Shown here: piece after piece, positions 3,749 through 35,334 of the stretch
Position numbering within the stretch: the stretch's first letter is position 1
Layout of the letters: the number at the start of each line of letters is the position of its first letter
Virus record (IMG/VR): IMGVR_UViG_3300045938_000009
Coordinates: 1 to 35,334 of that record
DNA: 35,334 nt
Direction: 5' to 3' (one strand)
Source of the DNA: a virus
Made by a program: the position numbers and the translations under genes
The notes under the pieces: generated by a model
What the model saw: only the letters and a program-made list of their open reading frames with translations
Told to the model about the DNA's origin: nothing
The model's database searches: none

Positions 3749-4984
3749 TTATAAAGGTCGGGAATGTTTCGCTCTTGCTACCCATGCACTAGACTTGATC
3801 CTAGCCACCCCGCGACTTGCTTTCATAGCATCAAATGCGTATCTCACTGCGTCCATAGAGTTAGACCATTCATGTACACTATCGTCAGGCTTCCGTGTCT
3901 CTCGACCTTCTTTATCTAATCCCCACTTATAGTTCAAGTAAGCCGTATATGTCTTTACGCTGCGTGATGTAATACTAATTTGTTGATCTTTAACATACCC
4001 AATACCTTGTTCAACGCTGTCTGCTCCCTTAGTAACGGCAATGATATTTATACCGTAGTTGTATATCTCATCAATACTTTTAGGCTCTGCGCTATCAGCT
4101 ACTACTAAAGCCTTAGGCTGGTTATCTAATATGTCAGCTATTGCCTTGTTACTTAAACCTTTTTGATACGCTATCTCGTCAATGATATAGCCGCCGTTAT
4201 AGTAGTAAAGAGCCACGATGACGGTAGGGTCAACTGAGTAACCAAAGTCCACACCGTAACGCTCTAGACGTGCCTCGTGAGGTATCTCATCAATCTTAGC
4301 CCAGTTATTATAGATCCTACCCTGTAATGTATTAGGCATACCCAGCCATTTATGTTTATAAAGTGCAGGTCGTTTCTCTTTATCATCTTCAACTTCAAGT
4401 AAAAGCTCACTAGGCATATAACCGTATTTAATACCAATATCATAATTTAGATTTAAGATAAGTGTGTTTGGACGTCCTTCAACTACTAAGCGTACATGCA
4501 CAGGGTCTTCTTCTTCAAGTCGGTTGTAAGTATAGATAATTTGAGAACCAGGCTTACGGACTGTAGGCGTTAGGATCTCAATGCTTGTTTTAGATATAGT
4601 TTGCGCTTCTTCTATCCAAGCAATGTCTATGCCCTCAATGGATTTAATACTCTGTTCGTTCCTATGTAAACCTTTAAATATAAAATCTGATCCGTTAACT
4701 GTGTTTACAATAGAGTTCTCTGTCACTCTAAATCCTGTTAATTCGTACTTGTTGATAAGATCTGCTAACAATTGATGAGATGATTCACCAATAGAGTTTT
4801 GGAACTCACGACCACATAGTACACGTGTCTTTTCTTGCATTGCTCTAATCAAAAGAAAGCGTGCAACCGTATGAGACTTTAAAGAGAAACGACCACCGTA
4901 TACAGCAGCCTCACGCCAATCTCTATCGAAGAGACGTTTGTATTCAATTGGTATCTGTATTGTCTTTTGGTTCATCTTGTCCAA
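3749..4984 (-). CDS. terL: Terminase large subunit (PBSX/XtmB-like type)
   Basis: 411 aa with a deviant Walker A (YGGRFSLKS), VLCGREFQNSIGESS, a Walker B-like motif (DIAWIEEAQ) and a nuclease-half motif (GVDFGYSVDPT). The start may be the internal ATG at 4975. Confidence 0.9.
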   Translation of the reverse strand: MDKMNQKTIQIPIEYKRLFDRDWREAAVYGGRFSLKSHTVARFLLIRAMQEKTRVLCGREFQNSIGESSHQLLADLINKYELTGFRVTENSIVNTVNGSDFIFKGLHRNEQSIKSIEGIDIAWIEEAQTISKTSIEILTPTVRKPGSQIIYTYNRLEEEDPVHVRLVVEGRPNTLILNLNYDIGIKYGYMPSELLLEVEDDKEKRPALYKHKWLGMPNTLQGRIYNNWAKIDEIPHEARLERYGVDFGYSVDPTVIVALYYYNGGYIIDEIAYQKGLSNKAIADILDNQPKALVVADSAEPKSIDEIYNYGINIIAVTKGADSVEQGIGYVKDQQISITSRSVKTYTAYLNYKWGLDKEGRETRKPDDSVHEWSNSMDAVRYAFDAMKASRGVARIKSSAWVARAKHSRPL

Positions 4985-5450
4985 TAAACTGCACTAATAC
5001 AGGTAATTTATCACCACCGCTAGTTAAGTCTGTTTCTGTCTTGTCTTTCCAGCCAAAGTTGTTTTTCAAGTTGAAGATAGCACCAGATTGATTGCTGGTT
5101 TCCATTAGTCGAGTCTCAACATCTTCTTGTACTCTTTCACGAGCATCTTTTATAGTGCCGAAATATTCATCTCGTTTACCGTAGTTTAAAAGAGTATCAC
5201 GGTCTATCCCTAAGCGTCTAGCAAGCCCAGACATTGTATAAGGAGCAGGTGAACTGATCTCCATGTTGTCGCCTAGATCTTTGATGTAAATGCTCTTAGT
5301 GCGGTTGTCACACCAGTCAAAGTATTCATCAATAACCTTAGCTAACTCTTCATTAGTTTTAAAGAGTAAAGGCCGCCCAACTGGATTTTTAGTAGACGAC
5401 TGAGTTGTAAGATCTTTGTCTTGCTCTGTCATATGTTCGTATAATACCAC
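4944..5450 (-). CDS. terS: Terminase small subunit
   Basis: 168 aa. GRPLLFKTNEELAKVIDEYFDWC plus the HTH-like YTMSGLARRLGIDRDTLLNY resemble small terminases. It overlaps the terL start. Confidence 0.7.
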   Translation of the reverse strand: MVLYEHMTEQDKDLTTQSSTKNPVGRPLLFKTNEELAKVIDEYFDWCDNRTKSIYIKDLGDNMEISSPAPYTMSGLARRLGIDRDTLLNYGKRDEYFGTIKDARERVQEDVETRLMETSNQSGAIFNLKNNFGWKDKTETDLTSGGDKLPVLVQFIGQDEPKDNTDTN

Positions 5451-5725
5451 TAATGTTTGATAAAAGAAAAGAGGCGTTTTATTCTTTGTAGGATTGTTTC
5501 TTTCTTGTTAAACCAAATACTTCCAGACCATACGGGTTTGTAGTCTGGTATATCCCATTGAACTAACTCCCATTTACTCGAAGGACGATTGTACTCATAC
5601 CCTTCAAAATCTTCTTTACCTAAAATAACACCTTTAAGTCCACCCCAATCTACAATTTTATCACCGCGTTTAAACTTAACATTTCCGTCATTCATTTCTT
5701 TTTGCTGAATAGGTTCTTTAGCCAT
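5450..5725 (-). CDS. Hypothetical protein (91 aa)
   Basis: ORF in the co-directional operon; its stop abuts the terS start. No motif recognised. Confidence 0.6.
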   Translation of the reverse strand: MAKEPIQQKEMNDGNVKFKRGDKIVDWGGLKGVILGKEDFEGYEYNRPSSKWELVQWDIPDYKPVWSGSIWFNKKETILQRIKRLFSFIKH

Positions 5726-5832
5726 TTTCTTAATCCCCTTTGTCTACGTTGTTTAATCAATGCAAGTATCTCTTCTACTTGCTGTTTGTATTTACGTTCT
5801 CTGTACGATTGTCTATGAGGTTTCTTTTTCAT
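5692..5832 (-). CDS. Possible small basic protein (46 aa)
   Basis: Hand-translated as MKKKPHRQSYRERKYKQQVEEILALIKQRRQRGLRKWLKNLFSKKK. It fills an otherwise empty gap and overlaps the next start. Below the ORF-track size cut-off. Confidence 0.3.
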   Translation of the reverse strand: MKKKPHRQSYRERKYKQQVEEILALIKQRRQRGLRKWLKNLFSKKK

Positions 5833-5846
5833 GTGTAGCTATTATA

Positions 5847-6191
5847 CTAAATGTTTTCTGAGAGGTATCTTATAGGGTCTTCTGCTATTACCATTGAGCG
5901 AAGATTAACTTTCCAATTCTCAGCAATTACAACGTCCAAACCATCGTAAAGCATAATAGTATCTCCTGTTGTGTCCATATCAGAAACTTTTTGTTTTCCC
6001 CATAATGCCTTAGCAAAGTGATGATTATATTTAATCATAGGTATTGATAAGCCATGTACATTAAACGAAGGATCAATTAGTAAACTAACATCTTCCCAAG
6101 CGATTGATTTAGCCTGCTCAGACATAGTTCCTTTACATCCATTATCAATAGCTTTCTGTATAGCCTTCTCTAATACTTCTTTATCGCTCAT
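5847..6191 (-). CDS. Hypothetical protein, paralog of 6188..6496
   Basis: 114 aa. It shares KAIxKAxxNG, FAKALWGxxKV and a YLxENI C-terminus with its neighbour. Confidence 0.65.
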   Translation of the reverse strand: MSDKEVLEKAIQKAIDNGCKGTMSEQAKSIAWEDVSLLIDPSFNVHGLSIPMIKYNHHFAKALWGKQKVSDMDTTGDTIMLYDGLDVVIAENWKVNLRSMVIAEDPIRYLSENI

Positions 6192-6496
6192 ATATTCTCC
6201 TCTAAGTATTTAACACGATTCCACCGAACAGCCATAGCTTTTACATGTGCTTTCCAGGCTATCTCCTCATATGTATTGCCCCACTCTGCTAATACAGGTA
6301 CATTTACTTTTTCTTCACCCCAAAGAGCCTTTGCAAACGCTACATCGAACAGTAGTGTGTCTAGGTATACGGTCTTCTTACTGCCGAAGATTATATACTC
6401 TGCTTCTGGTGGCATATCAAAGTCTATACATCCGTATGAGTCCCAGCCATTTTTTTGCGCTTTACGTATGGCTTTAGTGACTATGGTTTTATTCAT
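6188..6496 (-). CDS. Hypothetical protein, paralog of 5847..6191
   Basis: 102 aa carrying the same motifs as its neighbour. The junction between the two is an ATGA overlap. Confidence 0.65.
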   Translation of the reverse strand: MNKTIVTKAIRKAQKNGWDSYGCIDFDMPPEAEYIIFGSKKTVYLDTLLFDVAFAKALWGEEKVNVPVLAEWGNTYEEIAWKAHVKAMAVRWNRVKYLEENI

Positions 6497-6596
6497 GGCA
6501 AATCACACAACCGTATTCATCAAACTCATACTTACTATTACCCTTTGTTACTATTCCCTTCTTCTTCCAGTGTCCGTGTAGTATTCTGTGTAGCAT
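6489..6596 (-). CDS. Possible micro-ORF (35 aa, His/Cys-containing)
   Basis: MLHRILHGHWKKKGIVTKGNSKYEFDEYGCVICHE. Its ATG directly follows the upstream stop, and its own stop overlaps the next start. Confidence 0.3.
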   Translation of the reverse strand: MLHRILHGHWKKKGIVTKGNSKYEFDEYGCVICHE

Positions 6597-6815
6597 TTAT
6601 TGCTCCTTAATTACGAATTTAGATAACTTAGACATTCTATCCTCCCAGTCATCTGCTATGTGTAAGTTATCTTTAGATAACCCATATTTATCAAATATAT
6701 TCATAGCAGATTCACCAGCTCCCATAAAATCGTGACCAAATGTACCACTACAATATTGTTCATACATTTGGCATAAAGAATAAAGGATTATAAACTCATT
6801 GTTAGTTAACTTCAC
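6597..6815 (-). CDS. Hypothetical protein (72 aa)
   Basis: ORF-track entry lying within the operon; no motif recognised. Confidence 0.6.
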   Translation of the reverse strand: MKLTNNEFIILYSLCQMYEQYCSGTFGHDFMGAGESAMNIFDKYGLSKDNLHIADDWEDRMSKLSKFVIKEQ

Positions 6816-6979
6816 TCGTTTATCCCCTCAAAATCTAATAATTGATACGTTACCTGAATTACCCTTCCACCTAATCTTTCTATACGAGCGTTGGCTACTT
6901 CAAGTCCTAAAGACTCACTGAACTGCTTTGTTTGCTCTTGTATCTCTACTGCTAGGGTCATTGGTTCGTTATCTCTCAT
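6812..6979 (-). CDS. Hypothetical protein (55 aa; shortened from track ORF 6812..7063)
   Basis: The internal ATG at 6979 follows AAAGGA at good spacing. The upstream 28 codons (MRVYLRHSAYFQYLQ...) look non-genic. Confidence 0.5.
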   Translation of the reverse strand: MRDNEPMTLAVEIQEQTKQFSESLGLEVANARIERLGGRVIQVTYQLLDFEGINE

Positions 6980-7098
6980 GTGGGTAGTCCTTTGTTGCGT
7001 CGTATACGAATAGTGCAACTGTAAATACTGAAAGTATGCTGAATGGCGTAAATATACACGCAATTACTATTGCTGCATCTCTTAGTAGTAAATGGCTT

Positions 7099-10188: not shown

Positions 10189-10707
10189 TCAATCATATTG
10201 ATTAACCCAATTCTCTTTCATTTCAATAGTTGTTTTTATTCTATGGCAATAGTCACACAATACTTGACCATTATTTACATCTAGTAATTGTTTTCTATCT
10301 TTCATATAAGGTACTATGTGATCTGCTTGTATTTTCCCGCCTCTTTGACTGCACCATTGGCAAGTATAGTCATCTTTTTCATACACTTTCTTTCGCCACT
10401 CTTTATATTCTTGAGTATTTCTTAGACTGACACGTAGTGTCGTTACACCACCACGCCAACTAGGATTATTTACACCCAACTTTTGCGCTCTTAATTTAGC
10501 TTTAGTTTCTAAAGAAGTAGGTAATCCTTTTCTTGAACCTTTTTTGTAGGTGCATTGTATTGAACAGAATCGTCTAACTTTATACACATAGTCTAGTTCT
10601 TTAAGAGTTTTGGTGGTTACTTTATCGCACACTTCACATTTCCAAGTAACGGTTTTAACGCCATTAACTATTGGCTTATAGGATTTATGCCCTTTTGTAT
10701 ACGTCAT
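10189..10707 (-). CDS. HNH endonuclease
   Basis: 172 aa with an HNH core (CQWCSQRGGKIQADHIVPYMKDRKQLLDVNNGQVLCDYCHRIKT) and an N-terminal CxxC pair. Confidence 0.85.
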   Translation of the reverse strand: MTYTKGHKSYKPIVNGVKTVTWKCEVCDKVTTKTLKELDYVYKVRRFCSIQCTYKKGSRKGLPTSLETKAKLRAQKLGVNNPSWRGGVTTLRVSLRNTQEYKEWRKKVYEKDDYTCQWCSQRGGKIQADHIVPYMKDRKQLLDVNNGQVLCDYCHRIKTTIEMKENWVNQYD

Positions 10708-11338: not shown

Positions 11339-11345
11339 TTTGTTT

Positions 11346-11990
11346 CTCTTTTCTTTTTTTGTATTCAGTCAGTGCATGGCTGCTAGTAGGAATTAGCCAG
11401 GGTGGAATCGAACCTCCCGAACTGCGATACGCGGCCTCCTTTTCTGAAGCTATCTACTACTAGCTAACTATATAAACACACCGACAGGGCGACTCTTAGT
11501 TGGGAAACTCAAGCCCTAATGTGGGTGGTATTCCGCTGTTTATATAGCCATGTGGAGCGTACAAGTATTCATCAATAGCGTGACTTACTCAAGTATAGCT
11601 ATTTAACTCGACGGTTTTCACACCGCTTATACGTCCATGTACTGACTGAATTGTTAATGTGTAATTAAGCGCATGGGGCTGCCGCTGCTTACTTGTCCTT
11701 GGATTTCAAGTCCACGTATCCACTCGTTAGGTTTCCCGTTGAAATGAGTCCCCGTAGCTTAGTCAAACAAGTAGTTTCAACTGCGGCCCACTGCGCTTAA
11801 TTGTTAATGTTTGTTTGACTGTTCGTCGTCCAAGCCCAGTTCCGTTTAGAGTTTCGTATAATACTACTTGCTATCGGCTGTGGCTTGGGTGATGAACAGT
11901 CAAACGGTTTCCTCTGCGTATCTTTGTGCTAGATGTTCGGGTGCATATCATCCCTGTTTCGCTTTGGTTGTACCCCTTCTTCGGTGGTAT
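11346..11990 (-). ncRNA. Candidate large structured non-coding RNA or long structured leader (locus A, about 645 nt)
   Basis: No - strand ORF of 60 aa or more lies across 11339-12037. A TTGACA-N17-TACTAT promoter sits at 11997-12025. Long-range helices: 11363-11379/11635-11651, 11382-11389/11457-11464, 11663-11673/11792-11802 and 11811-11836/11882-11907. Ordered blocks are shared with 32382-32849. Strand is assigned from the promoter only. Confidence 0.5.
11393..11466 (-). other. tRNA-like acceptor/T-arm element inside locus A (not a canonical tRNA)
   Basis: The - strand reads TAGCTAG...GGAGGTTCGATTCCACC-CTGGCTA-A. That gives a 7-bp acceptor-like stem with one G.U, and a T-arm with a TTCGATT loop and one A.A mismatch. 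Total length is 74 nt, but I could find no D-arm or anticodon arm. Confidence 0.35.
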
Positions 11991-11996
11991 GTCTCT

Positions 11997-12025
11997 ATAG
12001 TACTACACCATTGCGCTTATGTCAA
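11997..12025 (-). promoter_or_regulatory. Strong sigma70-type promoter driving locus A: TTGACA-N17-TACTAT
   Basis: -35 at 12025-12020 and -10 at 12002-11997 with an exact 17-nt spacer. It sits directly after the ninG-like stop. Confidence 0.7.
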
Positions 12026-12037
12026 TACTAATTGTGC

Positions 12038-29714: not shown

Positions 29715-31684
29715 CAGTCAAGCCTTTGTACTTCAACTGTCATTACTTCGGAATCAAACTCAAAGGGTTCACGTGCCGCGACGTGCTGGTAAATGCGTTG
29801 TAGACGGTTAAACGTGCCTGGAATCCAAAGGTTTTTAGGAGTTACGATGCGTTGACCTGCGTACTTCACGCCAGTATTAAAGCGTAGACCTGTGTTATAC
29901 CGTCCACCTTGTCCTGATACGTCTACATCGCGGTACACTGGATTGTTTGCAAAGTCTTTATCGTAGCCTGCTTGTACAGAATAAGAACCTGACACGGAAG
30001 GGAGTTGTGGACGTTGCTTCGGTATTCTCTTTAGTTGGCTAGGCGTGTCAAAGTGTGAGTACGCTGTGTATAACGCTGTTTGCAGTTGGTCACCTAGGTT
30101 GTGGTAGTCATTAGTTGAACGTTCTCCGTAGTACAAAGCCCCTACTCGGTTGCTTGCCTGTATAAAGGTGTCATCCTGCGTAGCGCGTCCAAAGGTACGA
30201 CCGATGATAGTCTTTTTATCAAGGCTTTCGTATAGATTAAGAGCTAAGTTATATACAAAACACTCTGCGTTGTCTGCTGCACCTACTGGTGTATACCAAA
30301 TGTATAGGCGGTTATTGAACACATCTAGGTTAATACTCTCTTTATTCACAATGGCGCGGTAGTCTTCAAGAAAGTCCTCGGCAAGGTTGCGCTCTTCTGA
30401 ACCGTTGAACTGCCAGACACCCTCATCATCTGCGTGATAAATATAGTTAGAGTCGTATACCAATGATTCCTGTGAGAATGTACCACGTTGTGACGGCGCG
30501 TCATCATCTTGGAAGGTGTCATTGTCTGAACCGAGTAGTAAACGCTTGTTTCTCTTTGAGAAGAAGTAAAGCACACCGTTAAGAGGAGCCATAGCCCGTA
30601 GACCGTCGGCATTCTTAGGCCCAGGCATGTAAAGGAAGTCAGTAGAAGTAAACTTATCGTACTCTGCAAAGTTAGAGTAGTTAACTGCTGTAGGGTCAGC
30701 GTCGTTCGTGTAAAATATCAACCCCTTGTGAGACATGATATTATTAGGGATAACTGGAACGTCTGTAATCTGAGTGACAGTGGTGAAGTCCCACTTATAA
30801 GGCTTTTCAAGACCATTAGTCCAGCGAATTATGTCCTGATCCATTGAGAAACGGTATTTAGTTGCACCTGCTGCCATGCCAGACTTAATAACTGCGGTCG
30901 TACCGTTAGCGTTTGCCTCGTACATTGTGTCATTGAAAGCAAAGATAGTTCGCACCTGTCCATTAGGTCGGTATGCTTTAAATAAGCCCTTAACAGTACC
31001 GTTTGTAGATGTATAGACGTTTACGTTAGCTGCGAATGTCGTAGAAGTCCACACTAGACCGTCTGTGATGCTCTGTAGCGCGGTTGTTGCGGAAGTCGTC
31101 GTACTTATCTCATACGTTCCCATCTGTTCATTCTGCGCCCTTACAACCACGTAGTACTGAGTACCGTTTGTAATCAATGGGGCTTCAAGAAAGTATGAAG
31201 GAATGTATGTAAACGATGAAGTAACCGAAGATGCAGGAATTGAAGAGCGTCCAAGTAGTACGCCAGGCATACCAGCGGCGTTTGTGTATAGCTCTACAAG
31301 TAATACACCTTTACTTGCCATACTTGAACGTAGTCGAACGTCAACACGGGTCACTCTGTTCGTAGATGTAGCTGTCACACGCTGTGCTATAGCGTTAGTT
31401 GCACTTAATGTGAACGTACTTGCACCAGTAGTAGAAAGAACAGATGCGTTTGAAGCCTCACCGATAGGAGTAGTAAAACGGTCAAGCCCTCGGCGCGTCT
31501 TATATCGTCCAATGTTAATCATACGAGCGTCAATAGCCGCGACAAGCTCCGTGTTCTTTACGTCATCATTGTCTTTATATGAATTAACACCGTCTTTAAA
31601 TGACAGTGATTGCGTTTGCCCCTTCTGAGTAGTTATTGAAGGTACAGGAGTACGATAGCCAAACCTAGAACGTACCATTGCCAA
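29714..31684 (-). CDS. Tail tubular protein B-like (nozzle) protein
   Basis: 656 aa, the second gene after the capsid block, following a roughly 230-aa protein as in the T7 gp11-gp12 order. The call is by size and synteny only. The start may be ATG 31678. Confidence 0.55.
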   Translation of the reverse strand: MAMVRSRFGYRTPVPSITTQKGQTQSLSFKDGVNSYKDNDDVKNTELVAAIDARMINIGRYKTRRGLDRFTTPIGEASNASVLSTTGASTFTLSATNAIAQRVTATSTNRVTRVDVRLRSSMASKGVLLVELYTNAAGMPGVLLGRSSIPASSVTSSFTYIPSYFLEAPLITNGTQYYVVVRAQNEQMGTYEISTTTSATTALQSITDGLVWTSTTFAANVNVYTSTNGTVKGLFKAYRPNGQVRTIFAFNDTMYEANANGTTAVIKSGMAAGATKYRFSMDQDIIRWTNGLEKPYKWDFTTVTQITDVPVIPNNIMSHKGLIFYTNDADPTAVNYSNFAEYDKFTSTDFLYMPGPKNADGLRAMAPLNGVLYFFSKRNKRLLLGSDNDTFQDDDAPSQRGTFSQESLVYDSNYIYHADDEGVWQFNGSEERNLAEDFLEDYRAIVNKESINLDVFNNRLYIWYTPVGAADNAECFVYNLALNLYESLDKKTIIGRTFGRATQDDTFIQASNRVGALYYGERSTNDYHNLGDQLQTALYTAYSHFDTPSQLKRIPKQRPQLPSVSGSYSVQAGYDKDFANNPVYRDVDVSGQGGRYNTGLRFNTGVKYAGQRIVTPKNLWIPGTFNRLQRIYQHVAAREPFEFDSEVMTVEVQRLD

Positions 31685-32381
31685 TACCTAGCGTTCCTTG
31701 GTATGTTCCAGCGTTGCCGTATGATACGCCGCGAGTACGAGACTTACCAGGCCCCATTTTACGAGTACCGTAACGTCCCTGCATGTCATCAGATAAGTCC
31801 TCAATACGTCGTTCATGTAGTGCTGCAATGTCGTAGTTCTCTCGGAATTGTTCAATGCCAGCTAATCCACCCTTAACAAGGATGTCTTTATATTCAAGTG
31901 GAATTTGAGGTGTTGAAGTTGTCGAGTCAGTAAGCCGCTTTGGTCGAGCAATGTATTGAATCTTAATTGTGTATTCTTTATCGAGTGGCGCAGGGAAGTA
32001 GAAAGACCCATTGTAGTCTGTGTAACTCATTGCAGGGCTTTGGTTGGCACTCTCAGGATCAGGCCAGCTGTCGAAGAAGTCAGCGGATGCAACGTAGTTC
32101 GGCTGGTAGACAGTCGGTCGTGCTGTAGTCTCATCAACTAGGATAAGTCGCACAATCTGTTGGTGGTCACAGTCGTAATCATAGGTAGTGTCACCTTCTG
32201 ATAGTATAGCTTCCTCTGTACCTTCGAGGAACTTAAAGCGTTGGCGGCCTAGTACTGAGTCTTGCGTACGTTGTACATATTCAAGCACAAGGTCACGAGA
32301 AAACTCAGAATCTTTAGACTGAGTAATAATTGAGTCAATTACCGATGCTGTGTTGTAACTTGCCACTAAGACTCCGTACAC
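31665..32381 (-). CDS. Tail tubular protein A-like (adaptor) protein
   Basis: About 233-238 aa, at the gp11 position. A more likely start is the GTG at 32366, which follows GGAG by 5 nt. Confidence 0.5.
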   Translation of the reverse strand: MYGVLVASYNTASVIDSIITQSKDSEFSRDLVLEYVQRTQDSVLGRQRFKFLEGTEEAILSEGDTTYDYDCDHQQIVRLILVDETTARPTVYQPNYVASADFFDSWPDPESANQSPAMSYTDYNGSFYFPAPLDKEYTIKIQYIARPKRLTDSTTSTPQIPLEYKDILVKGGLAGIEQFRENYDIAALHERRIEDLSDDMQGRYGTRKMGPGKSRTRGVSYGNAGTYQGTLGIGNGTF

Positions 32382-32425
32382 CGTCCATTACTTAGATAAT
32401 AGCATATAGCGTGTAGGAATGTTAA
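32379..32425 (-). promoter_or_regulatory. Probable late-type promoter-leader cassette (family L, diverged)
   Basis: The - strand reads TGCTATTAT-CTAAGTAAT-GGACGGTG, aligning with TGYTATATT-TAAGATAAC-..-GGACGGGG. Confidence 0.4.
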
Positions 32426-32429
32426 ATAT

Positions 32430-32815
32430 AATTCAGTAAATACATGGATGCTAGTAGCAAGTGCCTGACTATTTAACCTATATGGATTCAGAACAACTTA
32501 ATGTCTCTGGTCATAGCTCAAGATTACTACTAGCTGACTATCAAATAAGGTACGGCGTCACGTCTAAAGCATGCGCTTCTCCAAATCCTATTTAGTCATG
32601 TTGAACATATAAGACAAGGATTTGCATGTGGAGATTGCGCTCTCGATATTGCTATCTATAGTTTTTCACCTTGTTGTCACCTTGCATACTGCGTTGCTAA
32701 CCTACACCAGCCGAACGCAGCTTATGATCTGTGTAGTCAAGCGTCTACCTATTCCGCCACTTATATGTCCATGTATGCACTGAATTGTTTAGTTGCTATC
32801 CCTTCTTGGTGGATA
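32430..32815 (-). ncRNA. Candidate structured non-coding RNA (locus B, about 385 nt), paralog of locus A
   Basis: No track ORF in any of the six frames across 32382-32849. The promoter is at 32821-32849. A closing helix pairs 32430-32447 with 32769-32786. The stem 32450-32457/32527-32534 is identical to the one in locus A. Nested helices occur at 32573-32582/32630-32640 and 32583-32589/32617-32623. Confidence 0.45.
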
Positions 32816-32820
32816 TACTC

Positions 32821-32849
32821 ATATTAACACACGCTTACGTTAATTACAA
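32821..32849 (-). promoter_or_regulatory. Family-E promoter driving locus B: TTGTAA-N17-TAATAT
   Basis: -35 at 32849-32844 and -10 at 32826-32821. It directly abuts the stop of the glycosyltransferase-like gene. Confidence 0.7.
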
Positions 32850-35104: not shown

Positions 35105-35334
35105 TTAGCTTCGGACTGCAACTGAGAATGTAGGACGTAGAGTCTTTACACCGAATACTGTATCGACTGTTAATAGCCAACCTAGGTATTCCTGCTTGTA
35201 CTGCGCTTGTGTACGTGGTTTCAACTGTAGAGCGATACCGAGTGCGTCCTTGTGGAAGGCAACACCAGTTTCTTGTACAGGAGTACCAGCAACGCTAGGG
35301 AAGTTCTGAGACATAACTACGTCAAAGCCGTAGA
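35105..35334 (-). CDS. Major capsid protein, 3' part (continuation of 1..749)
   Basis: ...GFDVVMSQNFPSVAGTPVQETGVAFHKDALGIALQLKPRTQAQYKQEYLGWLLTVDTVFGVKTLRPTFSVAVRS. GFDVV and VAFHKDALG parallel T7 gp10 GFEVV and LFMHRSAVG (recalled from memory). The M in the track ORF is internal. Confidence 0.85.
   Translation of the reverse strand, partial: YGFDVVMSQNFPSVAGTPVQETGVAFHKDALGIALQLKPRTQAQYKQEYLGWLLTVDTVFGVKTLRPTFSVAVRS
35208..35334. repeat. 127-bp exact duplicate of window bases 1-127 (circular closure overlap)
   Basis: Direct comparison: both copies start with tgtgtacgtggtttcaactgtagagcg and end with gtcaaagccgtaga. Confidence 0.95.

Follow-up and report, generated by a model that had tools for sequence, protein, structure and literature searches.

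The DNA analysed here is the virus record IMGVR_UViG_3300045938_000009 of IMG/VR, 35,334 nucleotides (nt) long and hereafter called the window, and our subject is locus B, a segment at 32382-32849 on the minus strand that holds no protein gene and is predicted to encode an RNA element built on a four-way junction. Bases 1-127 of the window are repeated exactly at 35208-35334, so the window represents a closed circle of ~35.2 kb (about 35,207 bp), and the capsid gene runs across the circle junction. It is a phage genome with genes mostly on the minus strand, as are all window features given below. PHROG and Pfam scans of its larger open reading frames (ORFs) identified terminase, portal, adaptor, tail, Erf, NinG, HNH and SLT genes, and Pfam returned no match for the larger unannotated proteins. 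The best match to its TerL among cultured phages is 38% identical, and the same adaptor gene occurs on a Logan contig of 35,237 bp.

Locus B is flanked by a conserved gene of 199 aa and a gene for an SU10-type head-tail adaptor, and the capsid gene lies upstream of it. A model that read the sequence alone (hereafter the original prediction) had placed an accessory island upstream of B; this island lies between the major capsid gene and the adaptor, and B therefore sits at the boundary of the head and tail modules. The gene after B (31665-32381) encodes 238 aa and matches Pfam SU10_adaptor; judged from the corresponding start in the relative L006 (ATG GCA GAT TAC), translation probably begins not at 32381 but at a GTG at 32366. 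A second locus with related non-coding DNA, locus A, occupies 11339-12037. The predicted non-coding status of B is confirmed: all six frames of both regions are interrupted by TAA, TAG and TGA alike, which rules out a recoded gene at either place, and the one ORF listed for B is a 53-aa antisense frame with a TTG start (32622-32783). Nor is B a decayed protein gene: two relatives, L005 and L006, whose adaptor is 70-74% identical, carry no gene at this position, and the 468 bp of the window correspond there to 58-60 bp of intergenic DNA.

A promoter-like site, TTGTAA-N17-TAATAT, stands at 32821-32849, where it had been predicted, at the 5' edge of the inserted DNA and within the segment missing from L005 and L006. 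Read from the sequence, it agrees with 8 of 12 consensus positions; it falls below the threshold of our promoter scan, which did not report it. Downstream of it, at 32800-32812, is the leader motif CCACCAAGAAGGG. This block had been described as common to A and B, and it is, save for a 1-nt indel relative to the A version (CCACCGAAGAAGGG, 11987-11974); a similar sequence, CCAAGAAAGAAAGGG, lies downstream of the late promoter in the relative L040. Beyond B and outside the insertion, at 32396-32425, the scan confirmed a promoter of the late type for the tail operon, TTAACA-N18-TATTAT, with a TG-extended -10 that persists in L005 (TGCTAATAT) and L006 (TGGTATATT), both without B. The proposal that B is a separate transcription unit does not sit well with these data. 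Neither within nor beyond A or B did our scan detect a terminator-like site on the sense strand, the tail-operon -10 is conserved in relatives that lack B, and other members of the family occupy intergenic gaps of ~2-25 nt. Thus B is probably not an independent unit, and read-through and co-transcription with the neighbouring genes are more likely.

The four-way junction and its family

Exact-pattern scans were built from blocks common to A and B, and chance matches were removed by inspection. They yielded L003, L008, L015, L042, L046 and the distant L001 from IMG/VR, L023-L034 from JGI metagenomes, and a single member from a bacterial genome, L036 of Antrihabitans sp. YC2-6 (NZ_JAEMNW010000001.1). 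Chance matches in coding DNA (L002, L004, L022, L035, L037, L038, L043-L045 and L047-L049) were dropped, as were L007, L009-L014 and L016-L021, which have no second motif or no match to our core covariance model, R1. The family now comprises 17 distinct members (A, B, L003, L008, L015, L023-L026, L028-L031, L033, L036, L042 and L046), besides the partial L034; L029 and L033 each carry a further copy in tandem, added by R1, and L027 and L032 are identical to L015 and L023, flanking sequence included. R1 re-finds the members and detects exactly two copies in the window, with 79.7 bits for A and 20.3 bits (E = 0.018) for B, whose low score is due to its 146-nt arm 1. The search for homologs suggested by the original prediction thus brought 15 further members, and both helices it had singled out, the closing helix and the 8-bp stem, covary among them. 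L036, the only member from a cultured organism, lies in a putative prophage region (~4400-7060) with few ORFs and about 50% G+C, and roughly 300 nt more of structured-looking RNA separates the element there from the next gene.

Locus B is a member of a structured-RNA family absent from Rfam 15, whose models cover GOLLD, ROOL, tmRNA, YrlA, group I and II introns, ribozymes and riboswitches. Rfam 15 gave no match in the window as a whole and none in B at E <= 10; for A it returned only implausible miRNA and snoRNA matches, and for 18 related loci nothing except a transfer RNA (tRNA) in one arm of L026. Megablast and blastn searches of cultured phages (INPHARED) with the region, with B and with a core-only query found no match. 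The fold is not described in the full text searched, and a 2023 catalogue of candidate RNAs from IMG/VR, with 10,006 entries, spans only motifs of 30-151 nt.

Read from 5' to 3', the core consists of the P1 5' strand (...ACAUGG), P2, the joining strand J2/3, P3, a single A, P4, two nucleotides and the P1 3' strand (CCAUG...). P1, a closing helix of 17-19 bp formed by the two ends of the element, is continuous with P2 on its 5' strand. P2 (ACAUAUAAG/CUUAUAUGU) encloses arm 1, P3 (GGCUAUAUAAG/CUUAUAUAGUC) arm 2 and P4 (GCUAGUAG/CUACUAGC) arm 3, and P2 and P3 each consist of a 7-bp AUAUAAG/CUUAUAU stem with a single nucleotide after it. The helices meet in the motifs CAUGG|AC.UAUAAG, CUUAUAUGU-NC..CAU-GGCUA, UAGUC-A-GCUAGUAG and CUACUAGC-NN-CCAUG. 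A and B carry all of these junction blocks in order.

In B the complete junction is 357 nt long (32430-32786) and matches R1. Its P1 pairs AAUUCAGUGCAUACAUGG (32769-32786) with CCAUGUAUUUACUGAAUU (32430-32447), with one C.U mismatch and one G.U. Next to it, the acceptor-stem-like P2 5' strand ACAUAUAAG (32760-32768) pairs with CUUAUAUGU (32605-32613) in the consensus fold, as in the family, and encloses the variable arm 1 of 146 nt (32614-32759), which starts with UGGCGGAAUAGGUAGACGC and ends with the T-loop-like CAAAUCCUUG. J2/3 reads UCAACAU (32598-32604; family consensus NC(AA/UU)CAU). P3 is formed in the consensus fold by GACUAAAUAGG (32587-32597) and the bulged strand CCUUAUUUGAUAGUC (32536-32550). 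The last helix, P4, joins GCUAGUAGUAA (32524-32534), with its family pairing, to UUGCUACUAGC (32450-32460), which is followed by AU as J4/1 and by the CCA of P1; the arm within it, the variable arm 3 (32461-32523), has no significant similarity to other arms. Imposing the family consensus on B gives -103.0 kcal/mol, a cost of 1.2 kcal/mol relative to the minimum free energy of -104.2 kcal/mol. Both loci are more stable than their shuffles (z = -3.1 for B and -4.2 for A), and in both folds a helix joins the 5' and 3' ends.

Much of the original comparison of A and B stands: the ordered blocks and the long closing helix are common to both, the identical 8-bp stem GCUAGUAG/CUACUAGC surrounds inserts of 69 nt (B) and 67 nt (A), and the other listed motifs are in place, with one block to be withdrawn. 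The closing helix is indeed kept between the copies, with an additional C.U mismatch in P1 of B that had not been listed. The block CTCCACATG of B (32634-32626) is, by the family alignment, not homologous to CTCCACATGG of A and was discarded as a shared block; CTCCACATGG consists of the P2 3' strand plus J2/3, and its counterpart in B is GTTCAACATGA at about 32606-32596. The term paralogous fits in that there are two copies, and it misleads if taken to mean a recent duplication, as A and B share only the junction core and differ completely in their arms and outer P1.

Covariation supports this core as a conserved structure. Since the arms of A and B are unrelated, a full-length MAFFT alignment of the two is misleading, and it was replaced by a core alignment of 163 columns anchored on the conserved blocks, with variable stretches cut out. 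In one alignment, A5, MAFFT placed gaps in the outer 5' strand of P1; only the inner P1 was therefore counted there, and the statistics for the outer P1 come from alignment A2. Across 15 sequences and 50 pairs, 92.1% of cells are paired as against 23-41% with slid partners (about 92% against 19-44% in slid controls for the family overall), 20 of the 50 pairs show double changes, and none of 500 shuffles reaches the observed covariation. Compensatory changes occur in 11 of 18 pairs of P1, 5 of 9 of P2, 5 of 11 of P3 and 4 of 12 of P4; addition of the divergent L042 and L046, for 17 sequences, takes the compensated pairs up to 5/9 in P2 and up to 5/11 in P3. Family-wide, P2 is 98.7% and P3 95% paired. 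The similarity of A and B is therefore not confined to promoter and leader; it extends into four covarying helices, and the view that B is a conserved fold and not junk is borne out.

The original prediction had left the choice between an RNA and a DNA fold open, and the evidence leans clearly to RNA. There are 42 G.U cells against 20 A.C cells, eight of the latter at one conserved position of P1, and in P3 alone the ratio is 18 to 1; this excess indicates that the gene-sense strand is the strand that folds, and so points to RNA. The alternative is a DNA-level signal, such as a replication or packaging site, a fold like that of a single-strand origin, or a mimic of a Holliday junction. The strong sequence conservation of the helices next to the junction would suit such a site, as would the position of A beside the recombination genes Erf and NinG/Rap. 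A G.U pair would be G.T in DNA, however, and it is kept on one strand; the tRNA-type motifs described below, and the one tRNA match, are confined to the sense strand; and the orientation follows transcription wherever the flanking genes can be recognised. The presence of two copies in unrelated places of a genome of 35 kb, both dispensable in relatives, also fits poorly. We regard a DNA-level role as extremely improbable, and we are highly confident that B belongs to a real, covarying, sense-strand RNA family.

Some features of the core deserve mention in their own right. A three-codon mini-ORF, AUG GAC AUA UAA, lies at the P1/P2 boundary (32771-32760 in B), with equivalents in all members, and a second, AUG GCU AUA UAA, spans J2/3 and P3, where B reads AUG ACU AAA UAG (32600-32589). 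Neither is preceded by a Shine-Dalgarno sequence, the early stop is lost in L015 and L031, and both are probably a by-product of the helix sequences. In L031 (1100-1180, plus strand) the sequence AAAUUCAAUUAAUACAUGG, which is the true 5' strand of P1, is found some 50 nt upstream, and P2 is preceded by an insertion of a hairpin (GUGCUUAAA...UUUAAGCAC) and another copy of CAACAUGG; insertions are thus tolerated at the P1/P2 boundary too.

Variable arms and their likeness to tRNA

The arms are interchangeable and partly tRNA-like. They range from 18 to 238 nt and vary in both length and sequence between members, with only six similar pairs among 47 arms. It was correctly noted that the inserts of A and B are unrelated to each other, and yet arm 1 of B has relatives elsewhere: its first 20 nt are identical to arm 1 of L036, and there is a 19-nt similarity to L003. 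We take its start, UGGCGGAAUAGGUAGACGC, to resemble the D-arm of a class II tRNA such as tRNA-Leu. T-arms of the tRNA type (a 5-bp stem with a UUCRANN loop) occur five times in 5.4 kb of elements, as against 0.07 in shuffles, 3 in 136 kb of flanks and 0 on the antisense strand; one of them, GGAGGUUCGAUUCCACC (11401-11417), was found by the motif scan inside arm 3 of A. The clearest case is the P2 arm of L026, which scores 36.2 bits on the Rfam tRNA model RF00005 (gathering score 29), with P2 as its acceptor stem, and in which ARAGORN reports a tRNA with an aberrant 2-nt 'anticodon'. Most arms are not tRNAs. Arm-like sequence is also found in L040, which has no four-way junction: after its endolysin gene (5385-5515, plus strand) lies a module of ~120 nt, CATTAACAATTCAAGTGTGT...ACACACTTGAATAAC, the interior of which, GGAGGGTAGCCAAAAGAGTAATCTGCGGC, is similar to the P4 arms in L036 and L034. 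Arm sequences thus also circulate as stand-alone modules.

These observations raise the question of whether the element is a degenerate cluster of phage tRNA genes, with P2, P3 and P4 the acceptor stems of three former tRNAs that are mostly pseudogenes now and that complementary flanks would keep together. The Rfam-grade match in L026 and the enrichment of T-arm motifs (consensus GGUUCGAAUCC) are what such a cluster would leave behind; so is the form of P2 and P3, whose seven pairs and single following nucleotide resemble an acceptor stem with its discriminator and could be used as one, and a CCA stands 2 nt after P4. Nonetheless, ARAGORN finds no tRNA or transfer-messenger RNA (tmRNA) in the window at its default setting and, even at a threshold of 85%, no tRNA in A, in B or in 13 of 16 elements. 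The supposed acceptor stems are nearly identical in all units, on contigs of 38-54% G+C, which is not to be expected of decaying tRNAs that differ in identity, and near-identical sequences are reused for different arms. Above all, the conserved part is the junction that joins the units, with J2/3 and P1, and the 'tRNA bodies' are not conserved, which is the reverse of pseudogene decay and also sets the element apart from phage tRNA arrays. We consider this origin very unlikely.

Other RNAs combine an end-joining helix with tRNA-like structure: YrlA, a bacterial RNA of the Y RNA type, and the tRNA-like domain of tmRNA have a helix of the 5' and 3' ends and a tRNA-like module with a T-arm. The elements described here differ from both in giving no Rfam match, in carrying three arms on a four-way junction, in being much larger, and in showing no Ro/Rsr or SmpB context.

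Genomic setting and distribution

Wherever flanking genes are recognisable (about a dozen loci), the element is oriented as the genes are, and it occupies either the leader of an operon or a short gap between genes. It is separated from same-strand ORFs by gaps of ~2-25 nt in L023, L028, L029 and L033; in A, L023, L024, L025, L028 and L031 the next 10-40 nt bring a ribosome-binding site (RBS) and a start codon; and in A, B, L024, L025 and L036 it comes after a promoter, or a terminator and promoter, and before the first gene. The distribution is biased to late and lysis regions. Genes for SLT or lysozyme adjoin the element in A, L015, L029 and L028 and the small module in L040, with L023 a weak case, below the Pfam cut-off. 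L015 and L029 have Erf, NinG, holin and endolysin genes as in the window and carry the element after the endolysin gene; in the window element A precedes the holin gene, so that its position within the NinG-lysis region shifts among phages. In L028 it lies just upstream of a gene with a Phage_lysozyme2 domain, after a small membrane-like ORF.

Locus A, the better-scoring of the two copies in the window, holds an element of 289 nt (11363-11651), for which the coordinates of P1-P4 were verified. It lies between NinG/Rap and a holin-like gene followed by an SLT transglycosylase. Upstream of it in tandem is a small module, A0, of 140 nt (11663-11802), closed by AAUUAAGCGCAGUGG/CCAUGCGCUUAAUU, and A0 and the main element are preceded by the same 12-nt flank, ACATTAACAATT. 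Small tandem modules with this flank and a closing helix also occur in L024 and L015 and, downstream of the element, in L029, L033 and L036. Upstream of the A leader is a late promoter, TTGACA-N17-TACTAT (11997-12025), and the leader motif CCACCGAAGAAGGG, like the promoter, is conserved in L040; besides A0, the leader holds a 93-nt near-perfect hairpin (11813-11905). TAAGCG(C/T) stands directly after the -35 in the promoter spacers of A (11997-12025), B (32821-32849) and L025, and TTAAGCG(C/T)AGT opens A0 and the small modules of L024 and L015. About 650 bp downstream of A, past the lysis genes and far from the terminase genes, is a gene for an HNH endonuclease (10189-10707).

Both loci are polymorphic. 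L005 and L006 lack B, as described above, and in L039 and L040, whose NinG is 72% identical, the promoter and leader of A are kept, A0 and A are missing, and the small module of ~120 nt stands after the endolysin gene. That close relatives do without B, or without the modules of A, identifies the element as accessory. Presence and absence of this kind is also what a selfish, ORF-less element would show, one that moves or spreads by recombination in the manner of miniature inverted-repeat transposable elements (MITEs) or of ERIC, BOX and Correia sequences, with P1 as its terminal inverted repeat and an RNA fold that would serve only to make insertion inside operons harmless. The likeness goes further: such elements too are ORF-less, lie in transcribed intergenic DNA, are modular and mosaic and are complementary at their ends, and here there are, besides the polymorphism at both window loci relative to phages 70-74% identical in a flanking protein, a position that shifts within the NinG-lysis region, modules in tandem arrays, conservation of the 5' flank, (A)CATTAACAATT, and often, on the 3' side, a TTAAC-like sequence that the empty site of L005 (ATAACAATCATTC) resembles. 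P1 could pass as an inverted repeat; the flanks are loosely TTAAC-like, and no exact target-site duplication was found. Near-identical copies in different contexts are likewise lacking, A and B having only the core in common, and for want of a clear target duplication and of identical copies at unrelated sites a MITE seems improbable. The indel at B exceeds the unit bounded by P1 and takes in promoter and leader. No transposase or partner gene is held in common, terminal repeats do not explain covariation in P2-P4, and the strand-specific excess of G.U and the sense orientation in ~12 loci argue for selection at the RNA level; the tRNA-like arms are a further difference. A selfish element therefore seems to us a rather poor candidate.

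The same setting suggests another role, that of a cis-acting leader or intergenic regulator. It would control the genes that follow, those for lysis at A and those for adaptor and tail at B, and would never act as a free RNA; its effect would be on mRNA stability, on translation by insulation or enhancement, or through processive antitermination like that of HK022 put. In its favour are the invariable sense orientation, the position directly upstream of an RBS in many members and between promoter and first gene in the five loci named above, and the promoter and leader motif common to A and B. In lambdoid phages Q, PR' and tR' lie between NinG and the lysis genes; A occupies this position, and the window has no Q-like ORF there. 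The comparison with put is attractive as well, in that two related non-coding elements stand downstream of promoters heading long operons in a lambdoid-like genome without the usual protein regulator at that position. At the same time, put is about 70 nt long and consists of two stem-loops, and the scans of A and B show nothing that an antiterminator would have to overcome, as no terminator-like site was found on the sense strand. Nor is an expression platform visible: the RBS lies anywhere between 10-14 nt and more than 100 nt beyond P1, outside the conserved pairing. On these two grounds antitermination and riboswitch readings in particular seem unlikely. The element stands before a holin gene in the window or after the endolysin gene in L015 and L029, ahead of unrelated genes; close relatives keep the promoter and leader without the junction; and freely varying arms of up to 238 nt with an embedded tRNA would be unusual for a riboswitch-like regulator. 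Cis-regulation is, in our opinion, an unlikely explanation, if the least unlikely of those considered beside our own.

An all-against-all BLAST of same-strand ORFs within 5 kb of the members revealed no protein partner common to all of them. The families recovered, each in a subset of loci, are Erf, NinG, holin-like and SLT proteins and two that we presume to be YopX-like and KGG-repeat-like from our own reading of the proteins. A presumably YopX-like protein of about 130-150 aa (MREIKFRAWD...GNIYENPELL) is encoded within 2.2 kb of the element in L008, L025, L026 and L036 and is absent near the other members, the window included. The PHROG and Pfam scans, which covered the larger window ORFs but not every small one, gave no reverse transcriptase and no TnpB or IscB that would suggest a retron, a defence-associated reverse transcriptase (DRT) system or an omega-RNA.

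A candidate chassis for RNA cargo

Overall, we believe the family is most readily pictured as a structured RNA module in gene sense that is co-transcribed with its neighbours, excised, and used as a stable chassis for variable cargo arms, although taken as a whole this statement falls somewhat short of being probable. Our best guess is that the element may be a co-transcribed, excisable scaffold RNA comparable to GOLLD and ROOL. Consider the situation at B. Transcription would start at the weak promoter of the element itself or come through from the head genes, and the RNA would continue into the adaptor and tail operon; the element's constant core would act as the chassis that holds and stabilises the cargo arms. 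Host RNases would probably then excise it, the long P1 duplex stacked on P2 forming a substrate of the RNase III type and the tRNA-like arms offering possible substrates of the RNase P/Z type. Excision would leave a stable RNA late in infection and a defined 5' end for the downstream mRNA, and the excised RNA might serve as a decoy for factors that bind or cleave tRNA, or as a self-assembling scaffold.

Some known systems offer parallels. RNase III excises structured RNA at long flanking duplexes of polycistronic transcripts in T7 mRNAs and rRNA operons, and P1, with 17-19 nearly perfect bp continuous with P2 on the 5' strand, has a comparable form; alone, however, it is shorter than the ~20-22 bp usually quoted for E. 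coli RNase III, and what has been shown in this respect is only the substrate-like geometry of P1. GOLLD and ROOL have recently been found to be RNA-only nanocages. Like the present family, they are encoded by phages or prophages and are large covarying structures with a conserved part and variable regions. The parallel with GOLLD extends to tRNA and lysis: linkers of GOLLD sometimes hold tRNAs and its expression rises at lysis (PMC12286853), and here one arm is a tRNA of Rfam grade and many members lie beside endolysin genes. The differences are also clear. Neither Rfam model matches A or B at E <= 10 or 13 member loci at E <= 1; the present element is smaller, with about 230-470 nt as against about 580 and 800 nt, L015 (257 nt) and L024 (246 nt) being compact examples; and it is a simple four-helix junction without predicted pseudoknots, found in operons and not in tRNA islands.

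Several points weigh against the excised chassis. Relatives do without the element, and the junction is thus not required for late transcription or lysis as such. The lack of a partner protein common to all members counts here too, and the helices next to the junction are conserved beyond what pairing needs, so that they could be a recognition site for a protein or at the DNA level. The sequences from which the structure was worked out by eye, with arms trimmed by hand, are also those on which its covariation was scored, and they are related to one another. Finally, excision, stability and any role in trans are purely inferred.

Large structured RNAs of unknown function are rare, and this family offers a compact one of about 250-450 nt, with a clean and strongly covarying fold, arbitrary inserts at three defined positions and, in one case, a tRNA among them. 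Stretches of 0.3-1 kb or more that contain no ORF in several genomes of uncultured phages are accounted for by it. It should also lend itself to experiments on the question of why ornate phage RNAs are linked with tRNA-like modules and with genes for lysis or other late functions. As a natural RNA scaffold it may also be of biotechnological interest. It is possible, if doubtful, that the family represents a new class of phage RNA, a four-way chassis with which phages would express, stabilise and exchange cargo RNAs, tRNA-like modules included, late in infection, perhaps as decoys for tRNA-directed host defences or as building blocks of RNA particles.

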